From Nemertoderma westbladi (Eukaryota > Animalia > Xenacoelomorpha): a DNA stretch of 64,000 nt. Position 1 is the first letter of the stretch. Each line of letters begins with the position of its first letter. Where the stretch lies: positions 62,001 to 126,000 of the forward strand of contig JAUCBJ010008464.1 of assembly GCA_032718475.1 (NCBI GenBank), given 5' to 3'. Under the pieces are notes generated by a model that saw nothing but the letters and a program-made list of their open reading frames with translations, did no database searches and had not been told where the DNA came from. Both the position numbers and the translations under genes were made by a program. Below, in pieces: positions 10,191 through 61,673 of this stretch.

Positions 10191-10508
10191 ATTAGTGAAT
10201 CACTTAACTGATTCATCAATGGATAACATATCTATGTCTAGCTGACCATCCGCTGACTTTGTTCATTTCTTATTTTGTTAAATTTTTATGATACTTGTGT
10301 AATTTTTTAAATATTATTTTTAAATATTTGCCTTACTAGTCAGCATCTGTGTACCAGTACCAAGCGTACAGTATAAAAGTACAGTAAGTAAGCGTACGGT
10401 AGAAAAAGGGTGGAAAGAAGGATCTAGACGATGCTAGTGGGGCTGCAGCCGATAGCGAAGATGAATGAATATTATATATCGATAAAAACTTGGCCCTAAT
10501 TACGTTAC

Positions 10509-17096: not shown

Positions 17097-17174
17097 CCGC
17101 TCCCAGAAAATGGGATTTTAGTCTATAAAATATAAAAAATCACAGTTTCTAAAATAGAAAAATACTTTAAACAG

Positions 17175-31578: not shown

Positions 31579-33252
31579 TCTATATATATAAATATCCTCT
31601 GTCTGTCTGTGAGTCTGTGAGTCTGTGAGTCTATGAGTCTGTGAGTCTGTCCAAGCTATACGCTCCGACACACGAGCACCAATCTGAGCGAATGATACAT
31701 CGATCGAAAGCTCTCGTCCCGAGCACGTAAACTATCGCTATCTCGAGGCTTATTTTACGCGTTTGCTTGCGTGAATGCGTATTTTGTATTCGCTACAACA
31801 TGTTGTGTGATAAAATCTCAAAGTGATTCGAATATTCCTTTTGGCAGTACAGGCCTGGCAAAGCTGAGAGTTAGTTAGCAAGGCAGCTAGCTACTTGCAG
31901 ACCAATCATAGGTGGCCTGCAGCAGGCTGGGTTGGTTAAGTAGTAATCTCAATAAATAGGACCCAGCAGGAGAGTGGAGTGGATCTACTGTGATTGGTTC
32001 TTGACTTACATTGGTAAGAACAAGCAGTAAATCTTAGATTAGCTTTTTTTCAGTTCACATATTGTTTATAATCATAAACACAAAATGATTCAATTATTCA
32101 TTTTTGCAATGTACCGGATGGGTGCTAGCGAGGTAGGCCTAGCAGGTCGTCAGTCCGTCATCCTACAAGTTGGATCTTGACTCTATCATGTGCGTGCACC
32201 TATATAATGCAGACCATCCTCAGCCCGTGAACATGAATTGTAAAGGCTATCTCGAGGCTGATTTTTTACACATTTACTTGATACTTGCATGAATGCGTCT
32301 TTGAGGAAAATTGCATTATTCTGCAGTTGTTTTGTTATCGGAGAAATTACTGATCAGCAAGCAGGAAATTATAACAGCAGTTATTGCATCATCGTAACCA
32401 CTCTGCTGACACTTTGCAGAATAAATTCTACCTGACCATAGCTGCGTGTTGGGAGGACGCCGACCAGTTTGCAGTTCTTCAGTCTGCCACTAGGAGGCGA
32501 AATGTCTGAAAGTGAAAATCTTATCCTATCTTGTTATTAATAATGATTTTTAGCTGAGACTTAGGTCCTTTACACAATATGTTTATAATGTTTTTTTTGC
32601 TGATACCAAGCAGAGTATACTACACCGTAGGGTGTGTATTTGGGCTTGGGGAGACGATGACTAATCTTCAGTTCCCCAGTCTGCCGCTATTAGGGGATGA
32701 AATGTCTGAATGAGGAAACCTACAATTTTGTTGTTTATGAATACTTTTTTGCTGATACTTGGCATTTGGCAGAGGACTACTACACCATAGTCGTCATGTT
32801 TGGGGAGGACGCTAACCAGTGCATAATTATGCAGTCTGCCACTAGGGGGCGAAATGTCTGAAATTAAAACCTTCCATTTTAATACGATAGAGTTGCTGCA
32901 GTGACCTACTGCACTATAGGTTATGTTTGCGAGGACGCTAACCACTACTCTGCAGTTATACAGTTTTCCACTAAGGGGAAAATATTACACACAGTTTAAA
33001 CCTTTTCACATTTTATTATTTGTAATCCATTGGAGGTGTTACTTGGAAGGTATCTACTACAACATAAAGCCTTATGTTTATTATTGTATGTACTGTAGCT
33101 GCAACTAAAACGGGATCAGTCTGTTAGTCTTATGTAAAGTTTTGTTAAGTTAATTAATTAATTTATTTATGTTTGATATTGTCCATTGATTGATTGATTG
33201 TATAGAAGCTTGTGAACTAGAAAGCCGTGGCCGAAGGCCACGGGCTTTCTAG
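31579..33252 (+). mobile_element. Non-autonomous Helitron inserted in the 3' region of piece C
   Basis: A|TC start, GTCT-type microsatellite near the 5' end, GC hairpin CCGTGGCC-GAA-GGCCACGG, CTAG|T end; absent from the matching position of copies B and D. Confidence 0.85.
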
Positions 33253-34297
33253 TATTTAATAAATATTTATAAAATCTGTTAAAACAAGTGTTATAATAGA
33301 GTAAATGCTGATAAATTAACTCTAGAGAGTTTGTAAATCAAAAATCTGTTAAATTTTAGATCCTTTAAATTTCTAGTCAATTAAGATATCGTAGCATTTA
33401 CCGATACTCTTAAAAAGACAAAATTTCGAGAATTAAGGATCCTAGTCCCCAGACATGTTCTGGAATAAAATTGTGTCTATTTTAATGTCAAATAATAAAA
33501 TTTACGGAAATAAATTTTAAATTCATATCCTCTCATGAATTTTATAAATTGTCATTTTATTTATAACAATTTATAACATTCCCAAAATTCAATTAATTAA
33601 TAGATCATGGGAGCGGAGATTCACCATATTAAGTATATTAGTGTGCGAGAATCTCCAATGTATAGTCAATAACTGATAAAATTCATAAAATCATGTATAA
33701 AGGGGAAAATTGAAAATTAAAGAATTACTATTAAATAGCATCCCAGATCTGTATGCATGAAAATTACCCTAATTCTACTGCTAGCTTTCCATAATGTCAC
33801 CATAGCAACAACCACGCTAGAATTAGAAGCGAGTTAAAAGAACAATAGAAAGCTTGCCCCATTGAATAGCATGCGGAATAAATAGCACCCTGCTAGTATC
33901 CAGGGATACATAATAATAACGTGGCATTCTGGAAGGCACTTGACTAACAGACAAATGGCCCGAATGTGTACAATTTGTGACAGGAGTGTGGAATTTGTGT
34001 ATTTATAGGTGAATGTTACTACTAAAGTGTGTTTACAGTAGCGAGTCGCAGTTGTGAAAGTTACCCTGCCTCTGTAGCAAGAACCTCCAGTAGTTCTAAG
34101 CCCTTGGGACGGACAGTGGAGTGACTCGTGCTGGTTATTGTTGTCGTTGTGTAGCTACTATGTTGGCAAAAGGCACAACGATGACAGTATATCAACGCTG
34201 AGGATCTTGCGCTGTCCGGGGGCATTGAGGTGGAGGCAGCGACGACCGCTGGCCTAAATATCATTAATTATAATATCGATAAACTCATATAGCAGCT

Positions 34298-36480
34298 ATG
34301 ACTGAGTTAATAGAAGATGATCTTGGTATCATGGAGCGATATACCCTACCATTGCATTTAATAAGCGGCGACGCTAGTCAACCTACTACGGAGGACGATG
34401 GCCGTTATATCGAACCGCCAATGTCAAAGGAACAGCTCACGCGTGAATTGGACTATAGAAAATTCACCGCTCGCTATACGCATCGTAATGGTACGTATAT
34501 GGACTTCTTAACTACTGGTCTTCCTATCGATTTACATGACACGGACGATGTAGATACCGAAAGGGAGATGATCCTATTTAATTATCATACCCAGCAGAGT
34601 CGGAATGATAAACTGAAAATCGAACACGAAAATTCTTTTCGAAATCGACTCGAAAGAGAAGACGTTGAAGAGCCAGATAAACGCAATGACTTCAACGAAT
34701 ATTTGGAATTCTTAAGAGAAACATATCTCAATGTGGCCAGTCAACAAAATCTAGAAACTTGATATCTTCAAGGTATACATCATAACCCTATGATAGAATT
34801 CAAACGACTCTATTTCACTATGATGTATCTTACTGCCGATCGACCGCTACCTGTTGTACCGGATAGCTTCGAACAGATGGAGGAATATTGTAAAACTGGA
34901 GAAAGATCACCAGCGTTTCCCCTACAAGACGTGCGTCTTTAGTATTATTGCGATGAATGCCCTAGACCCAACCAACAAACGGAAAGACATAAACATACGC
35001 GGAGACGTTGCGCTAAACACAGTTTTACTCACTATACTTACAGGAGTTTCGAGCGAAACTTGTTCGATGTATCACCCACGCTCGCTCGACTCAAACGATC
35101 CTTAAACAAACCTATGATCAGAGTTCCGGAATACTCAGTCAGACCTCCTCATTCCCTAGTGAGACCTCAGACTCTTGATCCTAATAGTATGACGGATCCT
35201 CCTGAACTGTACTCATTGTTCAAAGATCTAGTGTTACCAGAACAATTAGACGGTGGCACTCCGGTTGTGGGCTCCCTAGATATTCGCCCATCCTACCTAG
35301 CCGGATTGGGACACGGACATCTAATATCGCCGTTCAACCCATATAATCATCCCGGTTTAACCCCGATACAACCCATCACCGAGGTGGAGGAGAGCGTTGT
35401 ACGAAACGCGTTAGACGCTATTCGGCAAAAGATCGGAAAAGGAACCTACGATTGTTTAGACAAACGTAAATTGCAACAACAAGTCCAAGTGGCAAAAGAA
35501 TTAGCTTTACCTCAGTTCGATCGGGAAATGCAGAATCTCGAAGAAGATATCGAACTCGGACGAACCTACTCTCTGTTTTTGGACGAACGCTTCCAATGAC
35601 AAGCGGAGGAAAATCAGCTCGAGGAGAAGCACATCGAAATGGACGAGAGAGAAGAAGCAGCTTTAGCCCAGCCAGAAGCTCAAATCCGTATGACGGATCT
35701 CTATTCCAAAACCATTATTCATCCTTCGATGGTTCCCATCGAAGTTCACAAACACTTCGCCACTGTACAACCCCAACCGGTTGATATCAACTTAAGATCT
35801 AGAGATCTTATCGCTGACGCTCCTATGTTACAACGTCCGCCAATCGAGGCTGCTCGTGTCGACGGTATACTCATTGAACCTCCTGACAATCGAGCGGATC
35901 TTGTCCGTGATATGGTACACGAGGTCAACCTACGCGCTAGACCTTTACTGAACTCATTTTATGGGATCAAAGACCACCCCCATTATGTCAATTTAACTCA
36001 ATATTATATGGTGAAACCGGAAGACCCTACACACAGTTTAAAGTTTCTACCATTGATAAATCCCACGGTGACTTGTTCATAAACTCGCATCCAGAGCTAC
36101 AAGAAGTTCATAGACGACCATATGAATATAAAGCCAGAGAACGCGAGTTGGAGAGAACCATCAAACCAAGGAAATTTCTCACTACTCACAGTCCACCTAC
36201 CGCTCTCATGCAAACGCCTCGTCAGGGACCAGTAAGAGCTGCTGTCCTGAAACGCGCTCTAAAGGTTGTTCGACCTCGTTCCACTGAGGTTGATATCGAT
36301 CAACCGGGTACCTCGACCGGCGGATACACTGACCGTAATCCTAAACCTTCCAATGCAATTGTATTGCACACCTCACCCAGGAGTTATAGCCCTCCTAGTA
36401 AAGTGGCTCGACCCAAAGAGAAAAGGACTCTTACTAGCCTCAAAAAACTTCGTAAACGCCGTTCACGTAAGAAGGACTAA
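34298..36480 (+). pseudogene. Accessory ORF3 of piece C (~730 codons, frameshifted), unknown function
   Basis: Consecutive overlapping ORF fragments from MTELIEDDLG to ...KKLRKRRSRKKD, ending ~80 bp before the 3' LTR. Confidence 0.78.
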
Positions 36481-36558
36481 TAGTTTAGAGTATTTTTGTA
36501 TTTTAGAAACTGTGATTTTTTATATTTTATAGACTTAAATCCCATTTTCTGGGAGCGG

Positions 36559-37657
36559 TGTAAAAGCTTTTGCGGACATAACAAGTCATTTTTCCGCAAT
36601 GCGCAGAATACTCTAAAATAGCCCTAAATTTATCCAACTACGCGACGGGAAGGAATTAAAGCCAGTATGACGAAATCTGTCAGCTGATTTCTTGTGGACG
36701 TGGAATTTCTTTGTTCTGCCTTATTCAGCCAATCAGAGCAATTTTCCCTTTATGTCTGACAGAGGCCTATGGAAACTCGCGCAATGCATTACGGTCTTTG
36801 TTTACTATTTTTCTGAGCATCAGAACCTGCTCGGAATCTTCTGTGCTTCTGTGTAGAATTTTCAGACTTTGGCCTAGGAAACATCAGATGGCCTTGATTA
36901 TAATAACGTAAATCTATTATCCTACTTAATCACCGCATCACATTTCATCATTATCAACTACATTTCATAACTGCATAAGTAACACATACTGACAGTTCAC
37001 CGCATTATTTTACTTCTGTTATTAATTGTTGTTATATTAATGGATATTGGTGTTATATTTGGAGAATACCGATAAATAATCATAAACCCCTCAATCTTCT
37101 TAATTACTGAGTTAAGAGGAACAGGTTTTTCCGGTAGCAACTGCGACTTAAATTATAGTGGTTTTTGTGTGAATTAAATGCTATTTCATAATCCCTACGT
37201 GTGTCAGTTGCTATCCTCCTTATATATGATCAAATTTAGTGAAGGTCGGAAGATCAGTGCTAAGTAGTGTGAAGTAGTGTGAAGTCGTGTGAATTAGTGT
37301 GAAGGTTAATAAAGCATCTCCTAAAGAATGCGCTATTTACAAAACTCTGAGGCCATCTAGTTGTGATTAGTATAAGTCATAAGTCATTTTATACTTAAAG
37401 CGCCACGCCTTAAAGGAACTGTTAATATTTCCCCGAAAGTAAATATATTTGTCAGAGATTATATAGTAACGATCAATCGAATAATACAGTAGGTCTACAC
37501 TGCAATAACTCTCAAGGAATCCGAATCCAGTCTCCCAAATCGTGGGTGATAGGTCGCGCACGGACTGGCTTCGGCTGATGTAACTTCAGTACACTAGATA
37601 ATTGATATAGGCTAAAGTCGATTTATAAACAAGAGGACAACTAAAATTGGCAGGTTA
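36559..37657 (+). repeat. 3' LTR of piece C, lacking the last ~25 bp
   Basis: GGGAGCGG|TGTAAAAGC start; homologous to B and D LTRs up to GGCAGGTTA. Confidence 0.88.
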
Positions 37658-37658
37658 G

Positions 37659-38719
37659 GGGAGACTGGATTCGGGTGCTTTGAAGTTATTGCGTTGCAGA
37701 CCTACTGTATTATTCGATTGATCGTTACTATATAATCTCTGACAATATTATTCACCTTCGGGGAAATATTAACAGTTCCTTTAGGACGTGGCGCTTTAAG
37801 TATATAAACAGAGTTATGACTTATATTAAACACAACAAGATGGCTACTGATTTTCGTAAATAGCACATTCTTTAGGAGATGATTTATTATCTGTCACACT
37901 GCTGCATACGATTTCACACTGCTGCACACTGATCTGCCGACCGTCACTGAATTTGACCATATATAAGGAGGATAGCAACTGACACATGTAGGGATTATGA
38001 AATAGCATTTAATTCACACTAAAACCACTATAATGTAAGTCGCAATTGCTACCGGTAACCGGTCCCTCTTACCTTCAGTAATCAAGAAAATTGGGGTTTT
38101 ATGATTATTTATCGGTATTCTCCAAATATAACAACATATCCATCAACATATAACAATTAATAACAGACAGTAAACAGAAGTAAAATAATGCGGTGATAGT
38201 CAGCCAGTATCGGTAATACCGGTACGCAGGTGCCAAGTTCAGTAGTTGAGTTGAGTGTGGCCCAGTTGTTATGGTTTGTTGCACAGTTGCACAGTGCAGT
38301 CAGCCAGTTGACAAGATAATAGATTTACGTTCCTATAATCAAAGCTGTCTAATGTTGGCCAAAGTCTGAAACTTCTACAGAAGCACAGAAAAATTCCAAA
38401 GCCGATGTTCTGAGGCTCAGGAAATGGTAAACACTAACACTGAATTGCGTGGGTTTCTGTAGGCTCCTTTCAACGCAAAGTGAAAATCGCTCTGATTGGC
38501 CGAACAGAACAAAGAGAAGTTCCATGTGTACAGTCTTTAGAGTATTAAGCGCATTGCGGTAAAGTAAGGCACGGTATACTGCGGGGAAAATGGCTTGTTA
38601 TGTCCGCTAAAGCACCCCACGGTACATTGCGGAGAAAAATGGCTTGTTATGTCCGCTAAAACAACTAAACAGTTCATTGCGGAGAAAAATGACTTGTTAT
38701 ATCCGCAAAAGCTTTTACA
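37659..38719 (-). repeat. BEL/Pao LTR E, inverted and 3'-truncated
   Basis: Ends GCAAAAGCTTTTACA on plus; homologous to the C LTR; three ~47-57-bp U3 repeats at 38580-38710; not preceded by the PPT. Confidence 0.85.
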
Positions 38720-42217: not shown

Positions 42218-43331
42218 GGATAGATCTTTTTACGGAACACAAGCGAACACAGTAGAACAAACTCGAACACACTCCAAAAACTGCCGAACACAATCGAACA
42301 CAGTCGAAAATAGAAAGAGCACAAAAAAATAACACCGGGTACCAACTTTTAGATAAAATTAGCCACGCGTTGCTTTTCTATAAGAAAATTCCCGAAATTA
42401 TTGATTAAAATTGTCGCGAAATTAAATATTCCTTTCTTATCAGATCAGGCCTAGTCTAAGCCGACAACTAATAATTTAACATAGTAGTATCTGCCTAAGT
42501 TAAGTGTGGTTAGCACCGGGACAGAGAACCCTACCGGTACCTGCCCGGGTAGGTACCTAACCGGGACCCAGCTCTTTAAATTCCAGTGCAGCAGTAGGCA
42601 GGTAGGTACCGGTACCTATGTTGTACCGTGTACTTCATGTACAAGTACAGTACGTACGGTATTGGGCCTAACATCCTAATTCATACCCTCAGCAATCAGT
42701 CCCAGGCCAAGCTATTCCGCAGTACGCAGGCAAACAGGTCTATTACTGTCGCTAATCCGCTATTACTATATATGTGACAGGTACGGTTCCCGGTAGGTTT
42801 CCGGTACCGGTACCTACTGTATGTTGTACCGTGTACTTCATGTACAGTACGTACGGTATTGGGCCTAACATCCTAATTCATACCTTCAGCAATCAGTCCC
42901 AGACCAAGCTATTCCGCAGTACGCAGGCAAACAGGTCTATTTCTGTCGCTAACCCGCTATTACTATATACTGTATGTGACAGGTACGTTTCCCGGTAGGT
43001 TTCCCTACATAGTTTGTTATACAGTACAGCAGTACACAACAAATAATAGGCTTACCTACATAGTTTGTTTACACTACAGCAGTACACAACAAATAATAGG
43101 CCTACCTGATAAGAAAGGAATATTTAATTTCGCGATAATGTTATTCAACAATTTCGGGAATTTTCTTATAGAAAAGCAACGCGTGGCTAATTTTATCTAA
43201 AACTTGGTACCCGGTGTTATTTTTTTGTGCTCTTTCTATTTTCGACTGTGTTCGATTGTGTTCGGCAGTTTTTGGAGTGTGTTCTGGTGTGTTCTTGTGT
43301 GTTCGCTTGTGTTCTGTAAAAAGAACTATCC
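42218..43331. mobile_element. Foldback or long-TIR non-autonomous DNA transposon
   Basis: ~225-bp inverted arms (42218-42443 and 43106-43331) around two ~195-bp and two ~48-bp direct repeats. Confidence 0.8.
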
Positions 43332-45237: not shown

Positions 45238-45830
45238 TACTACTAGGATCGGCATGCTGCATTGCAGCTGCATTTTTAAGAATGCTATGCCGGCTTGTCG
45301 ACAAAATTGCGCCGCCGCAACTCCCTATCACCCATGACATTTGCTAGATCATCCGCATCTTCAAGGCCAGTGTCCTTTAAGATGCGTCTCAAGAAAGTCA
45401 TGGGCTGTCCACCACGCTTATTCACTCCATGAGGCTGCCAAAGTACAAGATTATGCACTGGTTGGTCCTCACGGCGAAAGCAATGTCCTGCAAAGCGGAG
45501 GCGATTTTGTTCTAGTGTCAAGCTTGGGGGAACCAAAGAGACACCTCCAATGTTATATAGTGTCTGGTTGGAGATGTGTGCATTGTACTTGACACAATGA
45601 ACCCGGCGTAGCATTCTTGTGAATGTGCCATCCAGAGATTTGGTGTTCTCAGCAGTTAGAGCCCAGCATGGACTCCCATTGAGGAGTACTGGAACTACTG
45701 CTGCTCTAAATAATCGGACCTTAAGTTTCCGATTATTTCTCGGTGACTTCCAAATCCTGGAAAGCCTATTCAAGGCTGCCCATGCCTTTCCCTTACGTAT
45801 TCGAAGGTCCTCATCTGACTTCCGGTGAGT
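45238..45830 (-). mobile_element. 3' fragment of RTE LINE (same family as 1-302), within a GATA microsatellite
   Basis: ORF 45285-45773 with LFRAAVVPVLLNGSPCW and RLRFAGHCFR. Confidence 0.88.
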
Positions 45831-48397: not shown

Positions 48398-49597
48398 ATG
48401 GATCAATCTACGATTGGGCCTAATACAAGTAATAATAGAGTTAATGTTAAAAATCCACCACCACTTAGAGAAGACCTATCTTATGAAAATTGGGTCCGAG
48501 AATTAGAAATATGGCAAGACGCGACGGACATTCCGAAAACTCGGCAGGGACCCACCGTTTTCCTGAGTTTAACTGGCGTCGCCAGTGAGGCGATTCTAGA
48601 GATCTCCCGGGATGAATTAAAAGGTAAAGATGGAGTAAATCGTATCATAGAGAAACTCGATTCCTTGTATTTAAAAGATAAGGCCATACGGGCATTCCAC
48701 TCTTATGATAAATTCTGTAGTTTTAGACGACCCACAGACTCCAATATCACAGATTTTATAATAACTTTTGAGCGAAACGTAAATAAATGTAAGGCGCTTA
48801 ATATGATTCTTCCAGATGGGGTTTTAGCCTATCAACTATTGAAATGCGCAAATTTAGATGATACCAAAAACCAATTAGCGTTAGCAACGGTCGGCGAGCT
48901 AACCTATGATAATATGAAAAAGCAAATACTGAAATTATTCGTTGATGTTTCGCCTCAGTATGTAAATAGTAGTAGCAGAGATACGGATATTAAAATAAAA
49001 TCTGAACCGATATTTGCTGCTTCGGTCGAACAGGATACCGGAACTTGGGATTCAGAGGATATTGAATGGGATTATGAAACTGATTGTTACTATGGAAATT
49101 CATATTACAGGGGGGGTTATCCACGAAGCAGCGGAAGGTTTAGTCGCAGGCCAAGAATAGCCAGATACATAGTCACTAACAATAGGAGACCTCAACGAGG
49201 AACTGTCACTTCCTATCGGGTAAACGCGCCGAAAGCTGCAGGAACTTTGCGATTAAATCCTCCAGATCAGTACGGCAGACCTACACAATGTGGTTGCTGC
49301 ATGTCGATTTATCATTATGAATCCGATTGTAAAGAATCACCAAAAAGTACCGAATATAAGTCCGCTCTCTTTAACACTGTGAACATTGAAAATGAAGACA
49401 AGCTTCAAATTGACAATATAACACTTTTCACCGACGCCGATCTTGTCACTAAAAATCATCTTCTGTCAGAAACTCTCAACTGTGCTATTATTGACACGGG
49501 CTGTACAACGACTGTCGCTGGAGAGACATGGCTGAGATGCTACATTGAGTCTTTAAACTGTGTCGATAAACGAGATATAGTTTATGAGGACAGCAAT
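48398..49597 (+). pseudogene. gag: Copia gag and protease N-terminus (5' part of split polyprotein)
   Basis: YENW..E..IW, CGCCMSIYHYESDC knuckle, IIDTGCTTTVAG protease. Confidence 0.88.
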
Positions 49598-50843
49598 TGT
49601 AAAAGCTTCTGTGGGATCTAACTGGCCCCTTTTGCTTCGCAATCCAGTTTCCCCCCAGGGGCTGGAATACTCTAAAAAGGTTCTCTAACTGTATATATAT
49701 TCCCCTCGCCCGCAAGGTACCGTTACAGGTGTTTTAACGGACATAAAAGTCATTCTGCTATATACGTGTTTTGGCGGACATGGTAAGGCAAAAAACCTGT
49801 AATGCACCAACTACCTTTCACAGCTTAGCCGTGATGATTCATATTACGACATCTAACAGCTGGTTGCTGACATGGAAACAGCCATTGGATGCATGGTTCT
49901 TTGTTCGGCTTGAGCCAATCAGAGCGATTTTTCCTGTCGACGTGTAGCTTTTCGGTCGATCATAAGGAGAGTGTTCAGTCTTACTGCTTTTACTTGATAC
50001 TTTGTTGTTATTGCTGTCTAAGCCAGAAACACCGGCTTTTTGGGAAGAACTCTAGTAAAACTGCTTAAATTATCGAAAGTATAAACTGTTACCTTAACAA
50101 ATCAATAACTCACTAATTAACATGCTCACTTAATTTAATTGCATTAATCATATTGTTTGTACTGTTATTTTACCGTCAGTTATTAATTGTACCTATTTGT
50201 TGATGGAAATATTGCTCTTTGGATAATACGGATAAATCACCCAAATTCCCAATTTTCTTGATACACTACAGGTTAGAGAGACCGGCTATACATAACAATT
50301 GCGATTTATATTAATGTGGTGTGTATTGAATCCAATGTTATTTAGCAGACCCTACGTGAGTCAATTGCTGCTCTCTTTATGTGTGATCAAATATACTGAC
50401 GGTCGGCAGAATAGTGTGTATGATTGTGATTGGTAACAAAGTATTTCCTAAAGAATACGTTTTATACTTCAATCATAAGCAGTATCGTTGCGTTTTAGTA
50501 TAAGTCTTAGTTCTGTTTAGATAGATAGAGCGCCACGTCCTAAAGGAACTGTTAATATTTCCCGAAAGCCAATAATATCTGTCAGAAATTAATTATTAAC
50601 GATCTATCGAATAATACAGTAAGTTTACACTGCAACCTTACACTGCAATAATAAAATTTAAGCATCCGAATTCAGCCTCCCGGGTGTAGATCCATCGGGT
50701 GAATGATCGCGCATGGGCTGACTTCGGCTAATGTTTTGTGTATTAGCATAAAATATTGTCGTATGCTAAAGGTGTTTTTATTAACTAAAAGACATATAAA
50801 TTTTGGCAGGTTAAACTGCTAAAGGTCTTCAAAAGCGCGAACA
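49598..50843 (+). repeat. 5' LTR of copy D (1246 bp)
   Basis: Direct repeat of 60426-61668. Confidence 0.96.
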
Positions 50844-50856
50844 GTAACAGTTTATA
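50844..50856 (+). promoter_or_regulatory. Non-tRNA primer-binding site, complementary to LTR positions 50080-50092
   Basis: GTAACAGTTTATA is the exact reverse complement of TATAAACTGTTAC; functional role inferred. Confidence 0.7.
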
Positions 50857-53022
50857 ATCTTATTGCAGTAGGCAATAAGGTTGCAAAATACCGTAGTGAC
50901 TGGTAAAACTGAACCGGTACTTTGTAGGTCAGTAGGCCTAACTGTCATCACCGGTACCGGTACTGCTGTACAAGTACATTTAGTATTATTCGATTTGATT
51001 ATTGTATACTGGTAGGTCTTAGTACTTAATCAGGGACTGCAGCCCTGAATTTTTATTGAGATTTTACCTATTTCTGTCGGTTTTATTTCCTAGTAGGCTA
51101 ATATTGAGCAGAAGGCGTGTGACCCTGCTCAGATTGTTCAGATAATTGTAGGCTGAGCTGCTGTCTGACTGTTGTTGAGTTTGGAGAGATTACGGCGTAT
51201 GTAGAGTTTGTCTGATAAAGTGCCGTTAGTAAGTTGGGGCAGCCATATGCGGTAAGGTCAATCCCCTCTTAAAGAATAAGTCGTACTACCGTGTTAGAAC
51301 GCATACTAACTAACAGTTTCAGAGTCTGCATATACTGTAGTTTATCTAGGCTTGATCGTAGTCTGCCAGTGTTTTAGCCTGAGTTTGTTTGTGTGGTCTG
51401 TTCAGGTACCGTAATAGTTATTACTCAAATATTTGTAGGCTGGATTGTTGTCTAGCTATTTTTAGGTCTGAAGGGATTGCTGCGTGTGTAGAGTTGGTCT
51501 GATCAAGTGCCGTTAGTAAGTTGGGGCAGCCATAAGCGGTAAGGTCAATCCCCTCTTAAAGAGTAAGTCGTACTACCGTGTTAGAACGCATACTAACTAA
51601 CAGTTTCAGAATCTGCACATACTGTAGTTTGTTTAGGCTTAATAGTAGTCTGCCAGCGTTTGGTTTGTATTTGTTTGAGTATTCTGTACGGGTAGCGTAA
51701 TATTTATTATTCAGAGTTTATGCGATTATTCGCAACATTCATGTCCCCAAGTTTATTCCTACAGTAATTGTGCTTGTTATACATACCGTTATAGTTAAAC
51801 TAACCCCGGTACTACATTAGGGCTGCTTGGCGTAGGTAAAGACTGACGACTTTGTGCTTCGGTCACTCCAGCAGATGCCGTGGTTCTTTTAACTGTTCAA
51901 GTATATTTAACTACTGATTATTTGTTATACCGGTACTTGTACCTAATTTAGGGTTTAGTGTACAGTGCTTTCCGAAGTAATTAGTGTAGGCAGTATATTT
52001 GTGTTGTAAAGTGGTTGATAGGCACATTCGTTAGCTCTATTAGCTTCTGGGTAGGAACAATCCGTGATACATAACGTAGTACCTATAGCGATACGGTTAT
52101 AGGTCGTCAGGCGGTGGTATTTTCCTATCTGGACAGTACAATATATTTACTACTTATTATTTCAAATACCGTAGTACCCTGTCCGTTGTAATAACCAGAA
52201 TTCTAACCCTTTGTTAGGCTGGTTTGTAGACTTCCTGTAAAATTACCCTAAAAATTTCGTACGTAATATTTTGTTGTGTTTAATTAGAGAATTAATCTCA
52301 CCAGTATAGTAAGTAATTTGTAGTATTAAGTAACTTAGGTAAATTATAATTATCAGTTTTAGTGTCAAATAAATAGCACTTCACTGAGAGGCGTTCAGCT
52401 TCTGTGTAGTGACTCCCCCAGAAATAATAACATTTATTTCAAATATTGACAAAAACCCATATAACGGGTATATAAATATTATAAATCAACTCAAACGATT
52501 TATAAATAGTAGGCCTGCCATACAACAACTAGGTCTCAATATCAGTTGGACTGCTGCTTAAATAACGGTAATAAAGTAAGTTAAAGTAACCAAGTAACCC
52601 TAAAATATTCAGAAATTCAATTATTCTAAAATAATTGACATACCGGTATTTACCATAGGCTTATTATATTTATTTCTATAAATTTGAGCTGAAATCATAC
52701 CGGTATTCTGTAATTAATTCTAGTAATAATTATACTTATATATACTATAAGTGTCAGCTGTATACCGGTATTCACGATAGGCCTATTATATATTTATATA
52801 TATTTGTGCTAAAATTATATACCGGTACTCTGTGACAAATCTAGTCTGTAATAATACTTATATATATATTATAAGCATACCGGTATTCTAATATATTATA
52901 TATATATCACGCTACACTGAGTAGCAGTATCGGTAATTAATTATTAGGCTAACAGTGATACTGAATTACTAGACTTGCTTTAACTGTAATATAGCAGTAG
53001 GCGTTCGACTGTACAATCAAAC

Positions 53023-56000
53023 ATGGCTGACACAAGGCAAACTCTGTCAGATAGTCTCCTAGAAACAACAGCCTGTTTCTCAGATCAAAGTGTAGAGAAT
53101 CCCAGACCGAGGTCTGAAACCCCTCATACTGTAAGAAGGGCAACCCCTGCAGTGGTTGTGACAGAACCTAGGTTGGTAGAAAAGATTTCGCAATTTGCGA
53201 AGTTAGTGAAGCGCCGTTGGTCTGCCATAGGCACTCGGGCCCAAGTCAAGCGGGATCAAGAAGAAGCTATAAAACAGCAGCAACCTCCTAGCCAAGAACC
53301 TAGTTCTCAGCGGCCCGATAGCTCCAGTAGTTCGGATACTGTTGAGCGGACGCCCGAACGCGGAGCGAAGATGGCGGATACGGTTTATGATGGGCGGCCA
53401 GCCTGTGGGGAATCAACCGACGCCACTTCTTCTCAAGTGGAAAGTGAGGTGGAAGGCGAAGTGGAAAGTGAGGTGGAAGGCGAAGTGGAAAGTGAGGTGG
53501 AAAGCGAAGTGGAAAGCGAGGTGGAAAGCGAAGTGGAAAGCGAATTAACATCAGCAGAGAAGCCGCGAACTAGAGACGCTATCGACATTTATTTGTCCGA
53601 CTATCAGCGATTCCTAGGAGACGAAGAGTTGAGGAGACGGCTGTCTGGACTTTCCCCTAATAGTGAAGGAACCAAGCTTGTGTTGGACTCAATCGATGCC
53701 GAAATGTCAGCTGCAAACCAAGCTGAATGTGATGAAAAACTCCGCCTCATTAGAGTCCGAGAAGAACAAATAAAGAAAAGAAGGATAGAGGAACAAAAGG
53801 CGGCGGCTATGGCGGAGGCTATAGCAGATGCAGAAGCAGAAAGAAAGGCAGCGGCGGCAGAAGTAGAAGCAGAAAGAATAGCAGCAAAGGCAGCGGCGGC
53901 AGATGCAGAAGCAGAAAGAAAAGCAGCAAAGGCGGCGGCTGCGGCAGATGCAGAAGCAGAAAGAAAGGTGGCAAAGGCAGTGGCAGAAGCAGAAAGGAGA
54001 GCATCTGAGCAGACTACCCAACTGGAGTTGGAGAATCTGCAAGAGACACAAGACAGTATAAATAAACAGTTTACTGCTAATCAAATGCAGATGATGAGAA
54101 AATCTACTCCCAAGCGCCAGGGGTACACATCCTCGGAGGAAGGCGATACTACCGACCCTGAAGGCGGAGGAAATAGATCTCATCTAAGTAGGCGTAGAAA
54201 AACATATTACCGTCGCAAATTGCCTGATTTGCCCCCAGCTGTTAAAAGACAGCTAACTAGCACAGATTTAGGTAGTGCAGAACCCATAGAACAATTTATC
54301 CAGGTCAAAAGACTCCCTACTATAGTCGATGAACCTGAAATAATTAGGCCTGTAGTTCCCAAAGTCACTTCTGTGCTAGAGACCCCTACACTTCCAGAGC
54401 TTAACTCTAAATTCCCTTTACATAGCACTACACTGCCTGTACCCGGTGGAACAGTCCATGCAAATACCCCTGTCCAGATAGCAGAGAGAGAAATCAATAA
54501 TTTGTCTCCCGTCGTCCCGCGTCAGCCCGCTACTATGTTGGTGACTCCCGCTTCGGCGGTTGAGTGGGTGGAAGAGGGACGGCGGGGGATGAATCTCCTG
54601 CTAGGACAGATGCAGGAGACTGTCCACCAACTTAAGGGAACAGTGAGGGAAGGTAGAGCAGAGTTGCAAGAAGTGCAACAAAGTATCGCGCTAGAACGCG
54701 ACAAATTAGTCAATATACAAAAAGGCATACCAATGCCCCCTGTAACATTGTGTCAACCTGTTAGGTCTGAAGTACTACATGCGCAAGGTGTGGAGCCTAC
54801 ACGCATCTATACTGCTAGTGAAGTTGAAACTCCTATAGCAAACCCTATTAAGGGTGATTATAGACCTGTTATTAATGATATTCCCTATAGACCTGATAAT
54901 GATCCGAGAAATTTATATACCGATAATTCGATATTAAATAACACGATGGTCCAAGAAAGCTTTACGCGTCAGATGGCTAGAACAGAAGCCCGCCAAGCGG
55001 TCAAAGTGGGAGAGATCGTCAAATTCAATGGAGACGAGATGAAATGGTTACCTTTCAACGAATATTACAAAGATAGCATACAGAACTCTGTACTATCTAA
55101 CGGAGAGAAACTTAGATTCCTCATCAAGTGCTTGGAAGGACCTCCCAAGTTAATGGCGTTAAAGTTTATTGGACATCCAGATGGATTAAGACAAGTTTGG
55201 GATACACTAAACATCAGGTATGGTAACAAGGATAACATAGCTAAGTATTTGTATGCAAAATTAGTAGCCCCCCGACACTTCCTTAGTAGTGGGATTATAG
55301 AGTTTTCCGATGAAATTCAAGAGATCTGTAGACAACTGGACTGGTTAGGTAAGTCGCACGAATATCAGAGTTCCATGGTTATTGGAGCCGTAGTCTCTAC
55401 TTTACCAAAGGGTGGAGTATGTACACGCTGGGACAAGAAAGTGTTGTACATGAATGAACAACAACGACGAAGTCCTACCATGGCTGATCTCATGTCTTTC
55501 TTAGATAGTGAAGTAAAATTACAACTCATAAGGCAGTCCAGAGAGAAAACATCGGAAAATAAGGTAAGTGAGAAACCCGTTTCTAGGAGAAGGATAATAC
55601 CAGTGTGTTATACTGACGACAGCGAAAGTCAAGCTTCTCAAGAAGAGGACAGCGGGAAAGACACAGCAAAATCTTACTATGACAACAAGACCTATAAAGA
55701 CGTAAGTAAATACAAGTCTCGAACCAGTGACAGGAGAGAACAGGTAACAACAACTCCTCCTACGTCTCCTAAGAGAATTCACGGAAGAAAGCCCGAAGAA
55801 AGAACGAGAGTGCAGAACGTTAACCAAGTTAAGGTGAGTAACATCAAACCAAAATGTGCGCTGTGCGACGGGCCCCACCGTTTGAGTGCGTGTGCTGAAT
55901 TTCTAAAGAAATCCCCTGTAGACAGACGTACAGTCCTGTGGAATAAGCGGTTATGCTATAATTGCCTCAGATCAGGACACCAACGGCGAACCTGTTACTC

Positions 56001-57285
56001 CGACGTAAAGTGTGCAAAGTGTGGCGCGAAACATCACATCTTGTTACACAGTGAGTTCGAACGAGACAACCCGAGTCAGGCAAGTGAGCCCGAACTACAT
56101 GTCCAATTCAGTGATGTGAACGACACTGACCAAGGTTCTGAGTGGGAAGGATTCTATACAGACGAATTCTCCGATGCCAACGAATCCTGTTATCTAATAA
56201 ATACCACAGTGTATCGAGCACTTACGGATGAAAAGGACACTGACGAGTTTACTCCAACTCCTTTTGACAAACAACCATCTTGGAAAGTTCCGACTTCCAA
56301 CATAGGAATAAGAGAATTTCCTGTAGTGCAAGTTCGAGTTCATGGTCTTAACAAGAGTTACATAGTGAACGCCCTACTTGACTCCGGCAGCACAGGAACT
56401 TTCATCGATCAAGAACTAGCCGAAGATATCTTTGCTGGACAACCCAAGTTCCGGATTAAATTGAATATGTCAGGAATTATACAGGTTTGGAAATCTACCC
56501 TAACGGCAGATTACTATGTAGGTGAGTTGTCCACCCCCCAGGATAAATTAGGAGCACAAAGTATAAGGTCAGTAAAAATGGTGGCTATAAAGAACTTCGC
56601 TACTACCCAAGCAGACCTTTATAACTGGGACGAGGACGAGTGCATCCAACATCTTGAGATACCTCGATTCCAAACCGATTATCCTGGAGTGCAAATCCTC
56701 ATCGGCCAAAACGCGCATGAGGCGCTCGAGACATTGGAGAAACGGCCTGCTCAACTGCAGCCATTACAAACTTATGCGGTAAGAACTAGAGTAGGTTGGT
56801 ACTTTACTGGCCCTTCCCGCAGAACTCTTGAAGAAAGATTGCCACAAGACCGGCTACTTCAAGTAAAGGATTGGGAAGAGGGGAGCAGTGAAGTGGACGA
56901 ACCCACTGAGGTAACACCATACTCCTCAGATAATGACGATATTAACTCCAATGTAGATCAATGGAGACATTGCCTTGGGACGATTAATCCAGCCGACATC
57001 GCTTCCAGAGGAGCAACTCCTCAAGAACTGATAGATACTCCAGGCTGGTTAGGTGGATCCGACTCCTTAAGTAAAGAAGAAGAAGAATGGCCTCCTCATC
57101 TTACCACGGCAGAGAGTAGACAGGCCAAGGGAGCGGAGAAACTAACACAACAACTCAATCGCCCAGCTGGTCGTTTATGTTTACTGGAAAGAGACCGAAA
57201 ACTGTCCGGAAACTATGGAAGGCAAGATACTCTTCCTACGACCACTTCCCTAATCCGACAAATATCTAGGGACTCTATAACGTAA
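53023..57285 (+). CDS. gag: Intact 1420-aa BEL/Pao Gag-protease with fused short pol remnants; no RT, RNase H core or integrase
   Basis: Uninterrupted ORF; gag motif, CALC/CYNC/CAKC knuckles, ALLDSGS, then WRHC..NPADIASRG and the native pol C-terminus. Confidence 0.92.
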   Translation: MADTRQTLSDSLLETTACFSDQSVENPRPRSETPHTVRRATPAVVVTEPRLVEKISQFAKLVKRRWSAIGTRAQVKRDQEEAIKQQQPPSQEPSSQRPDSSSSSDTVERTPERGAKMADTVYDGRPACGESTDATSSQVESEVEGEVESEVEGEVESEVESEVESEVESEVESELTSAEKPRTRDAIDIYLSDYQRFLGDEELRRRLSGLSPNSEGTKLVLDSIDAEMSAANQAECDEKLRLIRVREEQIKKRRIEEQKAAAMAEAIADAEAERKAAAAEVEAERIAAKAAAADAEAERKAAKAAAAADAEAERKVAKAVAEAERRASEQTTQLELENLQETQDSINKQFTANQMQMMRKSTPKRQGYTSSEEGDTTDPEGGGNRSHLSRRRKTYYRRKLPDLPPAVKRQLTSTDLGSAEPIEQFIQVKRLPTIVDEPEIIRPVVPKVTSVLETPTLPELNSKFPLHSTTLPVPGGTVHANTPVQIAEREINNLSPVVPRQPATMLVTPASAVEWVEEGRRGMNLLLGQMQETVHQLKGTVREGRAELQEVQQSIALERDKLVNIQKGIPMPPVTLCQPVRSEVLHAQGVEPTRIYTASEVETPIANPIKGDYRPVINDIPYRPDNDPRNLYTDNSILNNTMVQESFTRQMARTEARQAVKVGEIVKFNGDEMKWLPFNEYYKDSIQNSVLSNGEKLRFLIKCLEGPPKLMALKFIGHPDGLRQVWDTLNIRYGNKDNIAKYLYAKLVAPRHFLSSGIIEFSDEIQEICRQLDWLGKSHEYQSSMVIGAVVSTLPKGGVCTRWDKKVLYMNEQQRRSPTMADLMSFLDSEVKLQLIRQSREKTSENKVSEKPVSRRRIIPVCYTDDSESQASQEEDSGKDTAKSYYDNKTYKDVSKYKSRTSDRREQVTTTPPTSPKRIHGRKPEERTRVQNVNQVKVSNIKPKCALCDGPHRLSACAEFLKKSPVDRRTVLWNKRLCYNCLRSGHQRRTCYSDVKCAKCGAKHHILLHSEFERDNPSQASEPELHVQFSDVNDTDQGSEWEGFYTDEFSDANESCYLINTTVYRALTDEKDTDEFTPTPFDKQPSWKVPTSNIGIREFPVVQVRVHGLNKSYIVNALLDSGSTGTFIDQELAEDIFAGQPKFRIKLNMSGIIQVWKSTLTADYYVGELSTPQDKLGAQSIRSVKMVAIKNFATTQADLYNWDEDECIQHLEIPRFQTDYPGVQILIGQNAHEALETLEKRPAQLQPLQTYAVRTRVGWYFTGPSRRTLEERLPQDRLLQVKDWEEGSSEVDEPTEVTPYSSDNDDINSNVDQWRHCLGTINPADIASRGATPQELIDTPGWLGGSDSLSKEEEEWPPHLTTAESRQAKGAEKLTQQLNRPAGRLCLLERDRKLSGNYGRQDTLPTTTSLIRQISRDSIT

Positions 57286-58909
57286 TAACATATGGAGTGG
57301 GCGTGTGGCTATATCATTTTATATTTGTTTTTATTTTATATTTATGTATGTATTATTATGTAATTTTATTATAATCGTTTTCTTTAATTTTATTTAGTAA
57401 AATGTTATTTTAGAAAATTTAGTAAATTAGTGCAATATATTAGTGTTTATTACGTACATAATTACTTATAATATATATTTAGTGCGACAGCGAGAAATAA
57501 TTATTTTCTCTTCCCTTACTGTCCGTATCATATTATAAATACGTGACTACAGTAAGATGAAATGTCCGTACTTCTTAAAGTACAATAAAGCCACTACTAT
57601 ATTCAAGTATTATTGGTAGGCAGAGTATTAGGAATGCAAAGTTCAGATCCTCGTGTCTCGGCTAAACCAAGCTCTGGGTAGACCTTGGAAACGACTTGCC
57701 TCTTCACACTGACATTGCTTTGTGCGATATTGCTCTTCTACCTTATATTAAATAATACATATAGTAGCGTGATGTCCCTCTAACAGTAGCGTAAATCGCA
57801 AATAAATCTGTTAAACTTTTTGACCATCTGTAATTCTAGTCGATTAAGATATCGTGGCACCCACCGATATACTTGAAAGACAAATTCTAGAATCAGTGGT
57901 TAATGTCCCCAGACAAGTTCTGGAATAAATCGGTGCCCATCCAAAATATTAATTTAATATTTATTAAAATCTGTAAAATTCCGATCCTTTAAAATTTCTA
58001 GTCAATTAAGATATCGCAGCACTTACCGATACTCTTAAAAAGACAAATTTCATAGAATTCAGGATCCTATGTCCCCAGACCTGCTCTGGAATCAAATTGT
58101 GCCAATTTAACATCAAATAATAAAATTCGAGGGAATAATTTTAAATTCATATTCAAATGAATTTCATAAATTGTCATTTTGTGAAATTTGTAACATTCCC
58201 AAAATTTCAGTAATTAATAGATCATGGGAGCGGAGATTCATATTGAGTGTACTAGAGTGCGAGAATCTCCAATATATAGTCAATAGCCGATAAAATTTAT
58301 AAAATCATGCATAAAGAGGATATTGACAATTAAAGAATTACTATTAAATAACATCCCAGATCTGTATACATGAGAATTGCCCTAATTCTACCGCTAGTTT
58401 TCCATAATGTCACCATGGCAACACCCACGCTAGAATTAGAAGCAAGTTAAATGAACAATAAAAAGCTTGCCCCATTGCGTAGCATAAGAGTATACATAGC
58501 GCACTATTAGTATCCAAGGATACATAGTAATAACGTGACATTCTGGAAGACACTGACTAACGGACAAATGGCATGCATGTGTGCAGTAAGTAATGATTGT
58601 ATGGAATTTGTGCGTTTATAGGTGAATGTTACTACTAAAGTGTGTTTACAGTAGCTAATCGCAATTGTAAAATAGCCCTAACTCTACCGAGATAACCTCA
58701 AGTGGATTCAAGCCTTTGGGACGGACAGTGGTGGGACTTGTGCCGGTTATCGTTGTCGTGCCGTTGCTACATGTTGGCGTAAACACTGCGACAACGGTAC
58801 ATCGGCGCTGAGAAACCCACTGTCCGGGGGCAAAAGGCCTAGTAGGCAGCGACGCCCGCTTGCCTAAAATATTAACTCATATTGATATTAATAAACTCAG
58901 ATAGCAGAT

Positions 58910-60347
58910 ATGACGGAATTGATAGAAGATGACCTTGGTATTAGAGAGCGATATACTCTACCTTTACAAGCGTTTGTGGATAGCTTGATACGCGGTGAAG
59001 CCGATCCGACTATTACGGAGGACGATGGTCGTTATATCGAACCGCTGATGTCCCAGGAACAACTTACGCGTGAATTGGACTATCGAAAATTAACCGCTCG
59101 CTATACGCATCGTAATGGTACGTATATGGACTTCTTAACTACCGGCCATCCTATCGATTTACATGATACGGACGATGTAGACACCGAAAGGGAAATGGTT
59201 CTATTTAAATATCATACCCAGCGGCGTCGTAACGATAAACCGAGAATAGATCACGAAAATTCTATTCGTAACAGACTGGGAAGACGAACCAATATGTCTA
59301 GAATCTGAGGAGATTCAGCCTATCGCGCTCGGAACAGCGACAACGATTATGGTATCAAGGTCCACAGTGTCTCACTGCGTACGATTATCGCCATGCCAAC
59401 TATGTTTCTCGGCAACATTGTCGGTTATGCGCATCGAGAGACCATGTTACGCCCATGGACACAAACGTCCGCTGTTCCTATTTCCACGAACAACCGGCGA
59501 TGGAAATTTATTGCGCATATTGCAGATTTAATAATTTGCACATTTTTGCCGTTTGCCCTCAATTTATGACTCAATGTCACCATTGTCAACTAAAGGGACA
59601 TGCCAGTTTCGATTGCCCTTTTAATCACGATTTGGAAAGCGTAGATGAAATGATCACACTACGTTACATCAGAGCTTGGGAAGCGAACACTGATTTATAT
59701 TGTGATTCACGCCATCGCTATTATCCTGGACGCGCCTACGAAGGAGTTTATGCGTTCCATCCATATTTGTTTGCCTCCGTCGAGCAGAAATCGCGCCTAT
59801 CAAGTTATGAACTATTGAAGCGCGTTGGAGAATGTATTTCAACCAAATATGTACGCAAATTCCTCAGGAGCATTAATCCGAGTGACATCAATTCGTATAA
59901 CTTAATAAACTTTATCCGTCAAGATCCGGCCTATGGAGACTTATTTGTCAACTCACACCCTGAGTTACAGGAAGTATATCGACGGCCTTACGAGTACAGA
60001 ACCCGCGAACGCGAGTTGGAAAGAACCATTAAACCAAGGAAGTTTCTAACTGCCTATGGTCCACCCACGGCCCTCGTTCAGACCACTCGTAAAGGACCCG
60101 TAAGAGCGGCTGTCTTGAAACGAGCTCTCAAAGCCGTTAGACCCTCTCCCCGGACGTTGATGTCAATCAACCCGGTGCTTCGACCGGCGGGTATACCGAT
60201 CGCAATCCCATACCTTCTGATGCAATCATATTGCACTCTTCACCCAGGAGTTATAGCCCTCCTCGTAAAGTGGCTCGCCCCAAAGAGAAAAGGACTCTTG
60301 CTAGCTTTAAAAAACTGCGTAAACGCCGTCCGCGCAAGAAAGACTAA
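58910..60347 (+). pseudogene. Accessory ORF3 of copy D with CCHC zinc-knuckle middle module (frameshifted)
   Basis: Shared N- and C-terminal parts with C and B; CAYCRFNNLHIFAVC and CHHCQLKGHASFDC motifs; 1-nt deletion near 60143. Confidence 0.78.
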
Positions 60348-60425
60348 CTGTTTAGAGTATTTTTATATTTTAGAAACTGTGATTTTGTATATTTTATAGA
60401 CTTAAATCCCATTTTCTGGGAGCGG

Positions 60426-61668
60426 TGTAAAAGCTTCTGTGGGATCTAACTGGCCCCTTTTGCTTCGCAATCCAGTTTCCCCCCAGGCGCTGGAATACTC
60501 TAAAAAGGTTCTCTAACTGTATATATATTCCCCTCGTGTTTTAACGGTTATCGGTGTTTTAACGGACATAAAAGTCATTCTGCTATATACGTGTTTTGGC
60601 GGACATGGTAAGGCAAAAAACCTGTAATGCACCAACTACCTTTCACAGCTTAGCCGTGATGATTCATATTACGACATCTAACAGCTGGTTGCTGACATGG
60701 AAACAGCCATTGGATGCATGGTTCTTTGTTCGGCTTGAGCCAATCAGAGCGATTTTTCCTGTCGACGTGTAGCTTTTCGGTCGATCATAAGGAGAGTGTT
60801 CAGTCTTACTGCTTTTACTTGATACTTTGTTGTTATTGCTGTCTAAGCCAGAAACACCGGCTTTTTGGGAAGAACTCTAGTAAAACTGCTTAAATTATCG
60901 AAAGTATAAACTGTTACCTTAACAAATCAATAACTCACTAATTAACATGCTCACTTAATTTAATTGCATTAATCATATTGTTTGTACTGTTATTTTACCG
61001 TCAGTTATTAATTGTACCTATTTGTTGATGGAAATATTGCTCTTTGGATAATACGGATAAATCACCCAAATTCCCAATTTTCTTGATACACTACAGGTTA
61101 GAGAGACCGGCTATACATAACAATTGCGATTTATATTAATGTGGTGTGTATTGAATCCAATGTTATTTAGCAGACCCTACGTGAGTCAATTGCTGCTCTC
61201 TTTATGTGTGATCAAATATACTGACGGTCGGCAGAATAGTGTGTATGATTGTGATTGGTAACAAAGTATTTCCTAAAGAATACGTTTTATACTTCAATCA
61301 TAAGCAGTATCGTTGCGTTTTAGTATAAGTCTTAGTTCTGTTTAGATAGATAGAGCGCCACGTCCTAAAGGAACTGTTAATATTTCCCGAAAGCCAATAA
61401 TATCTGTCAGAAATTAATTATTAACGATCTATCGAATAATACAGTAAGTTTACACTGCAACCTTACACTGCAATAATAAAATTTAAGCATCCGAATTCAG
61501 CCTCCCGGGTGTAGATCCATCGGGTGAATGATCGCGCATGGGCTGACTTCGGCTAATGTTTTGTGTATTAGCATAAAATATTGTCGTATGCTAAAGGTGT
61601 TTTTATTAACTAAAAGACATATAAATTTTGGCAGGTTAAACTGCTAAAGGTCTTCAAAAGCGCGAACA
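60426..61668 (+). repeat. 3' LTR of copy D (1243 bp)
   Basis: Preceded by GGGAGCGG; ends GCGCGAACA then TSD. Confidence 0.96.
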
Positions 61669-61673
61669 GCAAT

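Follow-up and report, generated by a model that had tools for sequence, protein, structure and literature searches.

The Belpaoviridae, in the ICTV profile (PMC8742986), carry an 18-nt primer-binding site (PBS) for a host tRNA-Arg or tRNA-Gly, are primed by that host tRNA and measure 4.2-10 kb; the same profile calls BEL/Pao replication poorly understood. Self-priming is described for the Tf1/sushi elements and predicted for Tcn1 and for the Copia lineage TAR in the portions of PMC6317226 and PMC4600332 that were available. According to the accessible parts of the respective papers, Tf1 requires a three-duplex 'pretzel', made of the primer:PBS duplex and two duplexes of PBS-adjacent sequence with the LTR downstream of the primer (PMC10085805), and its RNase H cut falls between bases 11 and 12 (PMC7175516). 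The PAS/anti-PAS interaction of HIV-1, as the available part of PMC1865047 presents it, involves an 8-nt motif that lies 5′ of the PBS in the PBS-enclosing stem and pairs with an arm of the tRNA.

An earlier note on the DNA studied here had proposed that a BEL/Pao element primes on its own LTR, and its author had been aware of no description of this for that superfamily. A full-text literature search, in which subscription papers and repeat-database reports were thinly covered, found no such case. PBS, tRNA and priming are not mentioned in PMC3118150 and PMC554778, and the available portions of PMC3601003, PMC5443660, PMC5006619 and PMC6934838 contain no such mention for BEL.

The locus lies in a window of 64,000 nt, the whole stretch of DNA that was analysed. 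The BEL/Pao family found in it likely primes minus-strand DNA with a cut piece of its own RNA, not with a host tRNA; we put the probability of this reading at roughly 0.78. If it is true, a self-made primer extends tRNA-independent priming to BEL/Pao, which would be the third LTR superfamily with self-priming, after Gypsy and Copia (in the latter as a prediction).

Element A and its family in the window

Element A (49598-61668, + strand) is a young BEL/Pao copy without reverse transcriptase (RT) and integrase, 12.1 kb long with LTRs of 1.25 kb. Its parts are as follows.

49593-49597, + strand: left target-site duplication (TSD), GCAAT; the element sits within a Copia pol
49598-50843, + strand: 5′ LTR, TG...CA, 1246 bp
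52990-57285, + strand: open frame of 1431 codons with Gag (DUF1759, CCHC motifs), a protease motif and an RNase H tail; RT absent
59302-60399, + strand: extra frame of 365 codons, 3′ of the pol remnant, without a Pfam match
60418-60425, + strand: polypurine tract (PPT), identical in copies A, B and C
60426-61668, + strand: 3′ LTR, with a second copy of the primer segment at 60905-60917
61669-61673, + strand: right TSD, GCAAT, repeating the left flank

The GCAAT repeats bound the element and so set the LTR end where the earlier note had placed it. The two LTRs are unlike at 13 of 1246 columns, 12 of these within one 19-nt patch. After the protease motif, the 1431-codon frame makes an in-frame jump, near 56950, to the RNase H tail. 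Since element A is young and TSD-bounded, it was presumably reverse-transcribed together with its present PBS, as a non-autonomous copy served by an RT given in trans.

Further members of the family lie in the same window, and their LTRs are listed below with the positions that correspond to the primer site and to the helices P2 and P3 of element A.

26694-27676, − strand: 5′ LTR of copy B; primer site 27233-27222; P3 27252-27244 and 26868-26859; P2 26878-26870
26666-26693, − strand: PBS and leader of copy B; PBS 26693-26682; 7-bp extension 26679-26673; leader strand of P2
36559-37657, + strand: 3′ LTR of copy C, lacking its end; variant of the site 36909-36920; P3 36892-36897 with 37512-37517
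37659-38719, − strand: LTR E, lacking its end; variant of the site 38327-38316; P3 38345-38339 with 37683-37677

Copy C (27745-37657) retains broken RNase H (Peptidase_A17) and integrase pieces at 27745-30897, which are collinear with full BEL polyproteins. The Pfam domains are DUF1759 gag in A and B and Peptidase_A17 in C, and every named relative of the RNase H piece carries PF05380. The element order PR-RT-RH-IN with BEL-type Gag and RNase H, together with TG...CA LTR ends, a TSD and a PPT, places the family in BEL/Pao, the RT itself being absent: no frame of the window holds a BEL-type RT motif, and RT is missing from all copies. Protein searches returned no close relatives, the best match being 48% identical.

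Copy B resembles A in having Gag and a protease motif, an in-frame jump to an RNase H tail and almost no integrase left; the same in-frame deletion from protease to RNase H is seen in A (56950) and B (about 20800, − strand), and the Gag-protease part is open in A. Both copies are 82-92% identical to C across shared non-LTR stretches. Identity among the four LTRs (A, B, C and E) is 62-79%, and between A and B it is 67.5% in the LTRs and 83-87% in most of the internal region. Judged from their sequences, A and B are an amplified non-autonomous subfamily with fast LTR turnover. About 3 kb of extra sequence lies between pol and the PPT (57300-60400 in A, 17076-20300 on the − strand in B, 33341-36558 in C); it holds decayed frames common to A, B and C, with no Pfam match.

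The LTRs of C and E are joined tail to tail at 37657/37659, each short of its end. The 3′ LTR of copy B breaks off at 16775, where a gag fragment in inverted orientation, D (14226-16771), adjoins it; no 5′ LTR was found for D upstream of 14226. The family is very abundant in the sequencing runs of organism A, with 9977 contigs of run X1 matching the LTR of B; among the 40 listed of 214 rows of differences between these contigs and that LTR, none falls in the PBS or the primer site. Several contigs of runs X3-X5 start matching B at 27221.

The window contains other features of note. A single-frame ORF resembling an RPA-interacting protein (PF14768; 2904-3626, − strand) adjoins a Gypsy element and is possibly a retrocopy. 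A tandem array of more than 20 copies of a 31-nt unit occupies about 10500-11200. Two elements with long terminal inverted repeats lie at 28358-28761 and 42218-43331, the first of which interrupts the RNase H of copy C, and 45238-45536 is an inverted copy related to window positions 1-299.

The primer-binding site and its neighbouring helices

Five helices, P1 to P5, are considered in element A. Their strands are given here in order of position.

50062-50071, + strand: 5′ strand of P3, anti-PAS-like, 5′ of the primer helix
50080-50092, + strand: 5′ strand of P1, the predicted 3′ end of the self-primer; predicted cut at 50092/50093
50631-50651, + strand: LTR strand of P2; 50642-50651 is kept in B and 50631-50640 is an A-specific extension
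50655-50664, + strand: 3′ strand of P3, a PAS-like template segment
50666-50727, + strand: P5, a hairpin adjoining P3 and present in A, B and C; two of its changes are matched
50707-50712, + strand: 5′ strand of P4, able to pair with 50835-50840 at the LTR end; invariant; it competes with or crosses P5
50844-50856, + strand: PBS (3′ strand of P1), with no spacer after the LTR and no TGG
50860-50885, + strand: leader strand of P2 (50860-50869 and 50876-50885)

The central claim of the earlier note was that the PBS of element A is complementary to its own LTR, and this was confirmed in each particular. The sequence GTAACAGTTTATA (50844-50856) is the exact reverse complement of TATAAACTGTTAC (50080-50092, and 60905-60917 in the 3′ LTR), and the pairing starts at the first base past the terminal CA of the LTR. 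As that note had also stated, no PBS of the TGG type is present: the first TGG lies 58 nt past the LTR end in A and 60 nt past it in B. With no TGG within 57 nt in either copy, a CCA-ending tRNA cannot pair there. The contrast drawn with the Gypsy and Copia elements of the window likewise stands, in that CA-TGG starts occur 5′ of the coding regions of the Gypsy (3979) and the Copia (48124) element, whose LTR ends are not fixed. Finally, the PBS and its site did change together in copy B, which has a 12-nt match at the homologous place with five matched changes.

The length of these matches is unusual. A 13-nt match in the LTR of A was reached by 1 of 5000 dinucleotide shuffles and a 12-nt match in copy B by 3 of 5000, and every other perfect inverted repeat within the LTR and leader is shorter than P1, in A as in B. 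In copy B, P1 is followed, past a 2x2 loop, by 7 further pairs. Between A and B, whose LTRs are 67.5% identical, P1 retains 12 pairs, 5 of the aligned columns showing double changes that amount to about three events, and the cognate core duplexes have energies of −13.9 and −12.7 kcal/mol, as against −5.7 and −6.5 kcal/mol for the crossed ones. The two PBSs have 7 of 12 columns and a 6-nt core in common, and each matches its own LTR exactly; the variants of the site in C and E alter the 6-nt core itself. Only two copies of the PBS, those of A and B, exist in the window, both in the RT-less subfamily, and the PBS predicted from C and E was not found after any LTR end there. For C/E-type copies the predicted PBS is ATAATAGATTTA. 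The Tf1-type complementarity of at least 11 nt between the PBS and the element's own 5′ LTR is thus present over 13 and 12 nt. The base that follows the predicted cut is C in all four LTRs and faces the terminal A of the LTR, so the P1 helix stops there.

Several other features near the site were noted. The TATAAA at 50080 was rejected as a TATA box because B, C and E do not keep it. A primer formed across a splice junction was likewise rejected for A and B, whose contiguous matches of 13 and 12 nt exceed the best spliced matches of 6 and 7 nt. The stretch 3′ of the predicted cut (50093-50130 and homologous places) is of uneven length, the four LTRs differing there by as much as about 100 nt. 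An acceptor-like TTTCAG is situated about 40-50 nt 5′ of the primer site in B (27271, − strand), C and E and is absent in A; there is no conserved donor upstream of it, and it could be the end of an intron or a site of trans-splicing. A possible donor-like AG/GTAAGA (the slash marking the donor position) is found in the LTRs of B (27070) and E (38072), and a weaker one in A (50272), which could serve a spliced message.

P2 and P3 surfaced when all inverted repeats were listed, and they occupy homologous places in A and B. In P2, the leader just 3′ of the PBS (50860-50869) pairs with LTR positions 50642-50651, over 10+10 bp in A and 9 bp in B. The second 10 bp in A come from the extension 50631-50640:50876-50885, and one double change, T-A to C-G in B, is seen. 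With the primer-bound bases blocked, the probability of P2 is 0.97 in A and 0.86 in B. A leader that pairs, past the PBS, with LTR sequence lying 3′ of the primer is the Tf1-type arrangement, a likeness that is weak alone.

P3 lies wholly inside the LTR and so can be read in four copies. Its 5′ strand is situated 8 nt 5′ of the primer helix and its 3′ strand 3 nt from the P2 strand. The pairs are GCTTAAA:TTTAAGC in A, GCTTAA:TTAAGC in B (where a 1-nt register shift is required), CCTTGA:TCAAGG in C and GCTTTGA:TCAAAGC in E. Among 96 testable long-range helices in A, P3 is the only one that C and E both retain while showing double changes (three), and under six non-physical pairing rules the same was seen in 0 of 307. 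In a scan tolerant of register shifts, P3 was the sole 6-bp helix present in all four LTRs, the complement-only null giving three AT-rich clusters. The cognate pair also had the best duplex energy of its row in 4 of 4 LTRs.

Matched changes are observed in P1, P2, P3 and P5. Covariation, which the earlier note had claimed for the PBS and its site, holds over the copies in the window for P1 in A and B and for P3 in all four LTRs. P2 and P5, with one and two double changes, are within the nulls when taken alone, since 5 of 462 null helices carry one or two, and the duplex energies of P2 and P3 in A are unexceptional, being matched by 39 and 48 of 100 shuffles. Taken as an adjacent pair, in a junction geometry that was defined after A had been inspected, P2 and P3 sum to 20 bp in A (18 bp being reached by 0 of 2000 shuffles) and to 15 bp in B (21 of 2000). 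P4 is an invariant helix of 6 bp that forms in B (0.98) and in A competes with the covarying P5. As a sure duplex of a pretzel it was rejected: it appeared in a fold of A from which the 5′ strand of P5 had been left out, and P5 prevails once that strand is included.

P1, P2 and P3 are predicted to meet at a three-way junction with linkers of 8, 3 and 3 nt. In unconstrained three-strand folds of the cognate sets all three helices form, in A at −47.8 and in B at −46.7 kcal/mol, and the best of 30 mixed sets reached −39.7 kcal/mol. In single-strand folds of A, P1 is kept with starts at 50080 (about 0.98) and 50070 (0.69) and lost with a start at or upstream of 50050, whereas in B it is kept at all seven starts; in a two-strand fold of A it does not form. 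The modelled single- and two-strand folds of A do not support the junction either. As P1 crosses P2 and P3 in uncut RNA, such folds cannot show all three helices.

BEL elements from other hosts

With six aligned BEL polyproteins as the query, 79 loci were retrieved on metagenome contigs and 11 in genome bins. The LTR end was fixed by a direct repeat in 17 of these 90 loci, which gave 15 elements once two duplicates had been removed. The 15 were chosen by shared patterns and form one clade of the RNase H tree (96/97), so they are not a sample of BEL/Pao as a whole. Searches with a 24-nt pattern of the LTR end gave 0 matches in metagenome contigs, and viral contigs provided no usable BEL relative, the lone match being one of 41 residues (L001, left out).

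At the first base past the LTR, TGG was found in none of the 15, although L016 has it after one base. It is apparent that in 11 of the 15 (L004, L013, L018, L025, L030, L049, L064, L080, L081, L082 and L089) the PBS, situated 0-3 nt past the LTR, is matched over 10-15 nt by sequence that spans a predicted GT-AG splice junction in the element's own LTR; LTR introns are accordingly a prediction for these elements. No unrelated LTR among 16 scored equally well, L064 and L018 being equalled only by their own clade. Of the others, L084 is marginal (9 nt), L076 is weak, and L069 has a contiguous 10-nt match that is equalled by 1 of 16 LTRs. As far as sequence can tell, the data support the view that BEL elements of other hosts share both the lack of a tRNA-type PBS and the complementarity to their own LTR.

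A helix resembling P3 was sought in 12 relatives of the spliced type: it is clear in L081 and L082, suggestive in L013, L018, L030, L064 and L084, ambiguous in L089 and absent in L004, L025, L049 and L080. Helices resembling P2 and P4 were not detectable by duplex energy in the same 12. In the RNase H tree, copy C falls outside the 15 on a long branch, in a wider group (96/89) that stands apart from the named insect and nematode sequences. The family, with its long branch, is not nested in the spliced clade in the trees, and the integrase tree is unresolved. Eleven contigs in bacterial genome bins (L081-L091) have BEL/Pao pol matches, several of them with both LTRs; these contigs are probably animal host DNA inside bacterial bins.

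Proposed priming mechanism, alternatives and known systems

The observation is real and well beyond chance, and it is best read as tRNA-independent priming in BEL/Pao. The events may be pictured as follows. In the genomic RNA, P1 would form between 50080-50092 and the PBS, P2 between LTR positions 50642-50651 and the leader directly after the PBS, and P3 between 50062-50071 and LTR positions 50655-50664, so that the LTR segment would grip the template at two points, as a tRNA does at a retroviral PBS and PAS. By analogy with Tf1, the RNase H of an RT from an autonomous relative would cut after 50092, the RT would extend the primer from the terminal CA of the LTR, and the segment cut off would be regained from the 3′ LTR copy. 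A covarying helix takes up the bases 8-18 nt 5′ of the primer helix, so the transcript's very 5′ terminus is probably not the primer. P3 points to a transcription start upstream of 50062 and a primer of at least 31 nt; unlike Tf1, whose primer consists of the transcript's first 11 nt, the element would thus probably use a primer with at least 18 nt of RNA 5′ of the primer helix. The covarying junction allows predictions at single-base resolution: an RNA 3′ end at 50092, a 5′ end at 50093 and a start upstream of 50062.

Within self-priming, the primer could instead come from the 3′-LTR copy (60887-60917), with the RNA's own 3′ end cut or ending at the site and folding back onto the PBS, or from a separate LTR-derived RNA acting in trans. 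We consider this variant unlikely overall, and assign to it about a third of the self-priming reading. The primer segment is present in both LTRs, P3 suggests that the transcript's opening bases alone do not make up the primer, and no poly(A) signal or TATA box that would mark the borders of U3, R and U5 is common to the four LTRs. Set against this, Tf1, the sole tested case in the available portion of PMC7175516, uses the 5′ copy, and the 5′ copy in element A, 550-750 nt from its partners, could fold while the RNA is being made.

It is improbable that the helices serve packaging or regulation and keep the PBS covered, the real primer being a host RNA, for example the 5′ half of a tRNA cleaved in its anticodon loop. 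The motif CTGTTA in the site has what we take to be a resemblance to the anticodon loop of tRNA-Asn, which would speak for such a primer. So would two precedents in the accessible parts of the literature, namely priming by half tRNAs in Copia lineages (PMC6317226) and the hiding of the PAS of HIV by intramolecular pairing (PMC1865047). Elements primed by half tRNAs (Osser, Bianca, copia type) have a PBS that pairs with the 5′ half of a tRNA. However, the PBSs of A and B differ (7 of 12 columns in common) and C and E change the core, so no one fixed host RNA fits, and the PBSs of 11 relatives match an exon-exon junction of the LTR, which a host primer leaves unexplained. Rfam finds no tRNA-like stretch in element A either. 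A captured tRNA in that element was rejected on the same search, which gave just two weak miRNA matches (E values of 1.2 and 4). No tRNA genes are present in the window.

A match without a role in priming is very improbable, whether it arose through template switching or repair in a non-autonomous subfamily or by chance in AT-rich DNA. Both PBS-bearing copies lack RT and the complementarity is AT-rich in the two copies compared, but the null rates are 1 and 3 in 5000, and in both copies the match is in exact register with the LTR end. Copy C, of a lineage with RNase H and integrase, shares the covariation of P3; self-complementary PBSs occur in relatives with matches across the RT, RNase H and integrase region; and element A, young and TSD-bounded, was presumably reverse-transcribed with this PBS.

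Priming by the element's own RNA, if true, explains why annotation that depends on a PBS misses such elements, and hosts may then be unable to control them by way of tRNA supply or tRNA fragments. A wider proposal, to which we give even odds, is that a broad BEL/Pao branch dropped tRNA priming and rebuilt the retroviral initiation complex from its own LTR RNA, with a primer of at least 31 nt held on the PBS and on a PAS-like site in a stem like that of U5 and leader; most of the sampled relatives would splice an LTR intron, and the present family would be intron-free.

Among known systems, the Belpaoviridae (Semotivirus: BEL, Pao, Tas, Sinbad, Suzu) share with this family TG...CA LTRs, a 5-bp TSD, DUF1759 gag, Peptidase_A17, a PPT and the order protease-RT-RNase H-integrase. 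Unlike the elements of the ICTV description (PMC8742986), A and B lack a PBS for tRNA-Arg or tRNA-Gly, and A, at 12.1 kb, exceeds the range of 4.2-10 kb.

The closest parallels in PBS design are Tf1/Tf2 (S. pombe), Tj1, Tosmo1-3 and the Tf1/sushi and Tcn1 groups, which, in the available portions of their descriptions, likewise have no tRNA PBS and carry one that complements their own 5′ LTR. All of these also share the second duplex, in which the leader that follows the PBS pairs with LTR sequence lying 3′ of the primer (available parts of PMC10085805, PMC7175516 and PMC4600332). So far as the Tf1 pretzel is covered there, P1 and P2 match two of its duplexes, the duplex 5′ of the PBS would have no more than a candidate in the invariant P4, and P3 is without a counterpart. 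The proteins here are of BEL/Pao type, not those of a Ty3/gypsy chromovirus, so the element is not a member of Tf1/sushi; moreover, its covarying helix arises from bases 5′ of the primer helix, which an 11-nt 5′-terminal primer cannot form. The mechanism of Tf1 is known by experiment and the likeness seen here from sequence alone. In the plant Ty1/copia lineage TAR (Houba, Osr-1), self-priming is predicted from complementarity between PBS and LTR, as here; TAR belongs to another superfamily and kingdom, and the available part of its description (PMC6317226) includes no junction.

Element A, which has no tRNA-like stretch and whose primer would be plain LTR sequence, would take a different route to the same independence as Cer7. 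That BEL/Pao element of C. elegans has reportedly been proposed to carry its own tRNA-like primer.

The HIV-1 initiation complex, as given in the available part of PMC1865047, resembles the proposed junction in that the primer pairs at the PBS and also, via an upstream segment, with a template motif of 8-10 nt that lies within the U5-leader stem around the PBS. The primer there is tRNA-Lys3, whereas here it would be LTR RNA, and the likeness is one of architecture only. The two-point grip nevertheless suggests that RT recognises a shape common to tRNA-primed and self-primed complexes, and such a shared shape bears on the order of origin, that is, on whether self-priming or tRNA priming came first.
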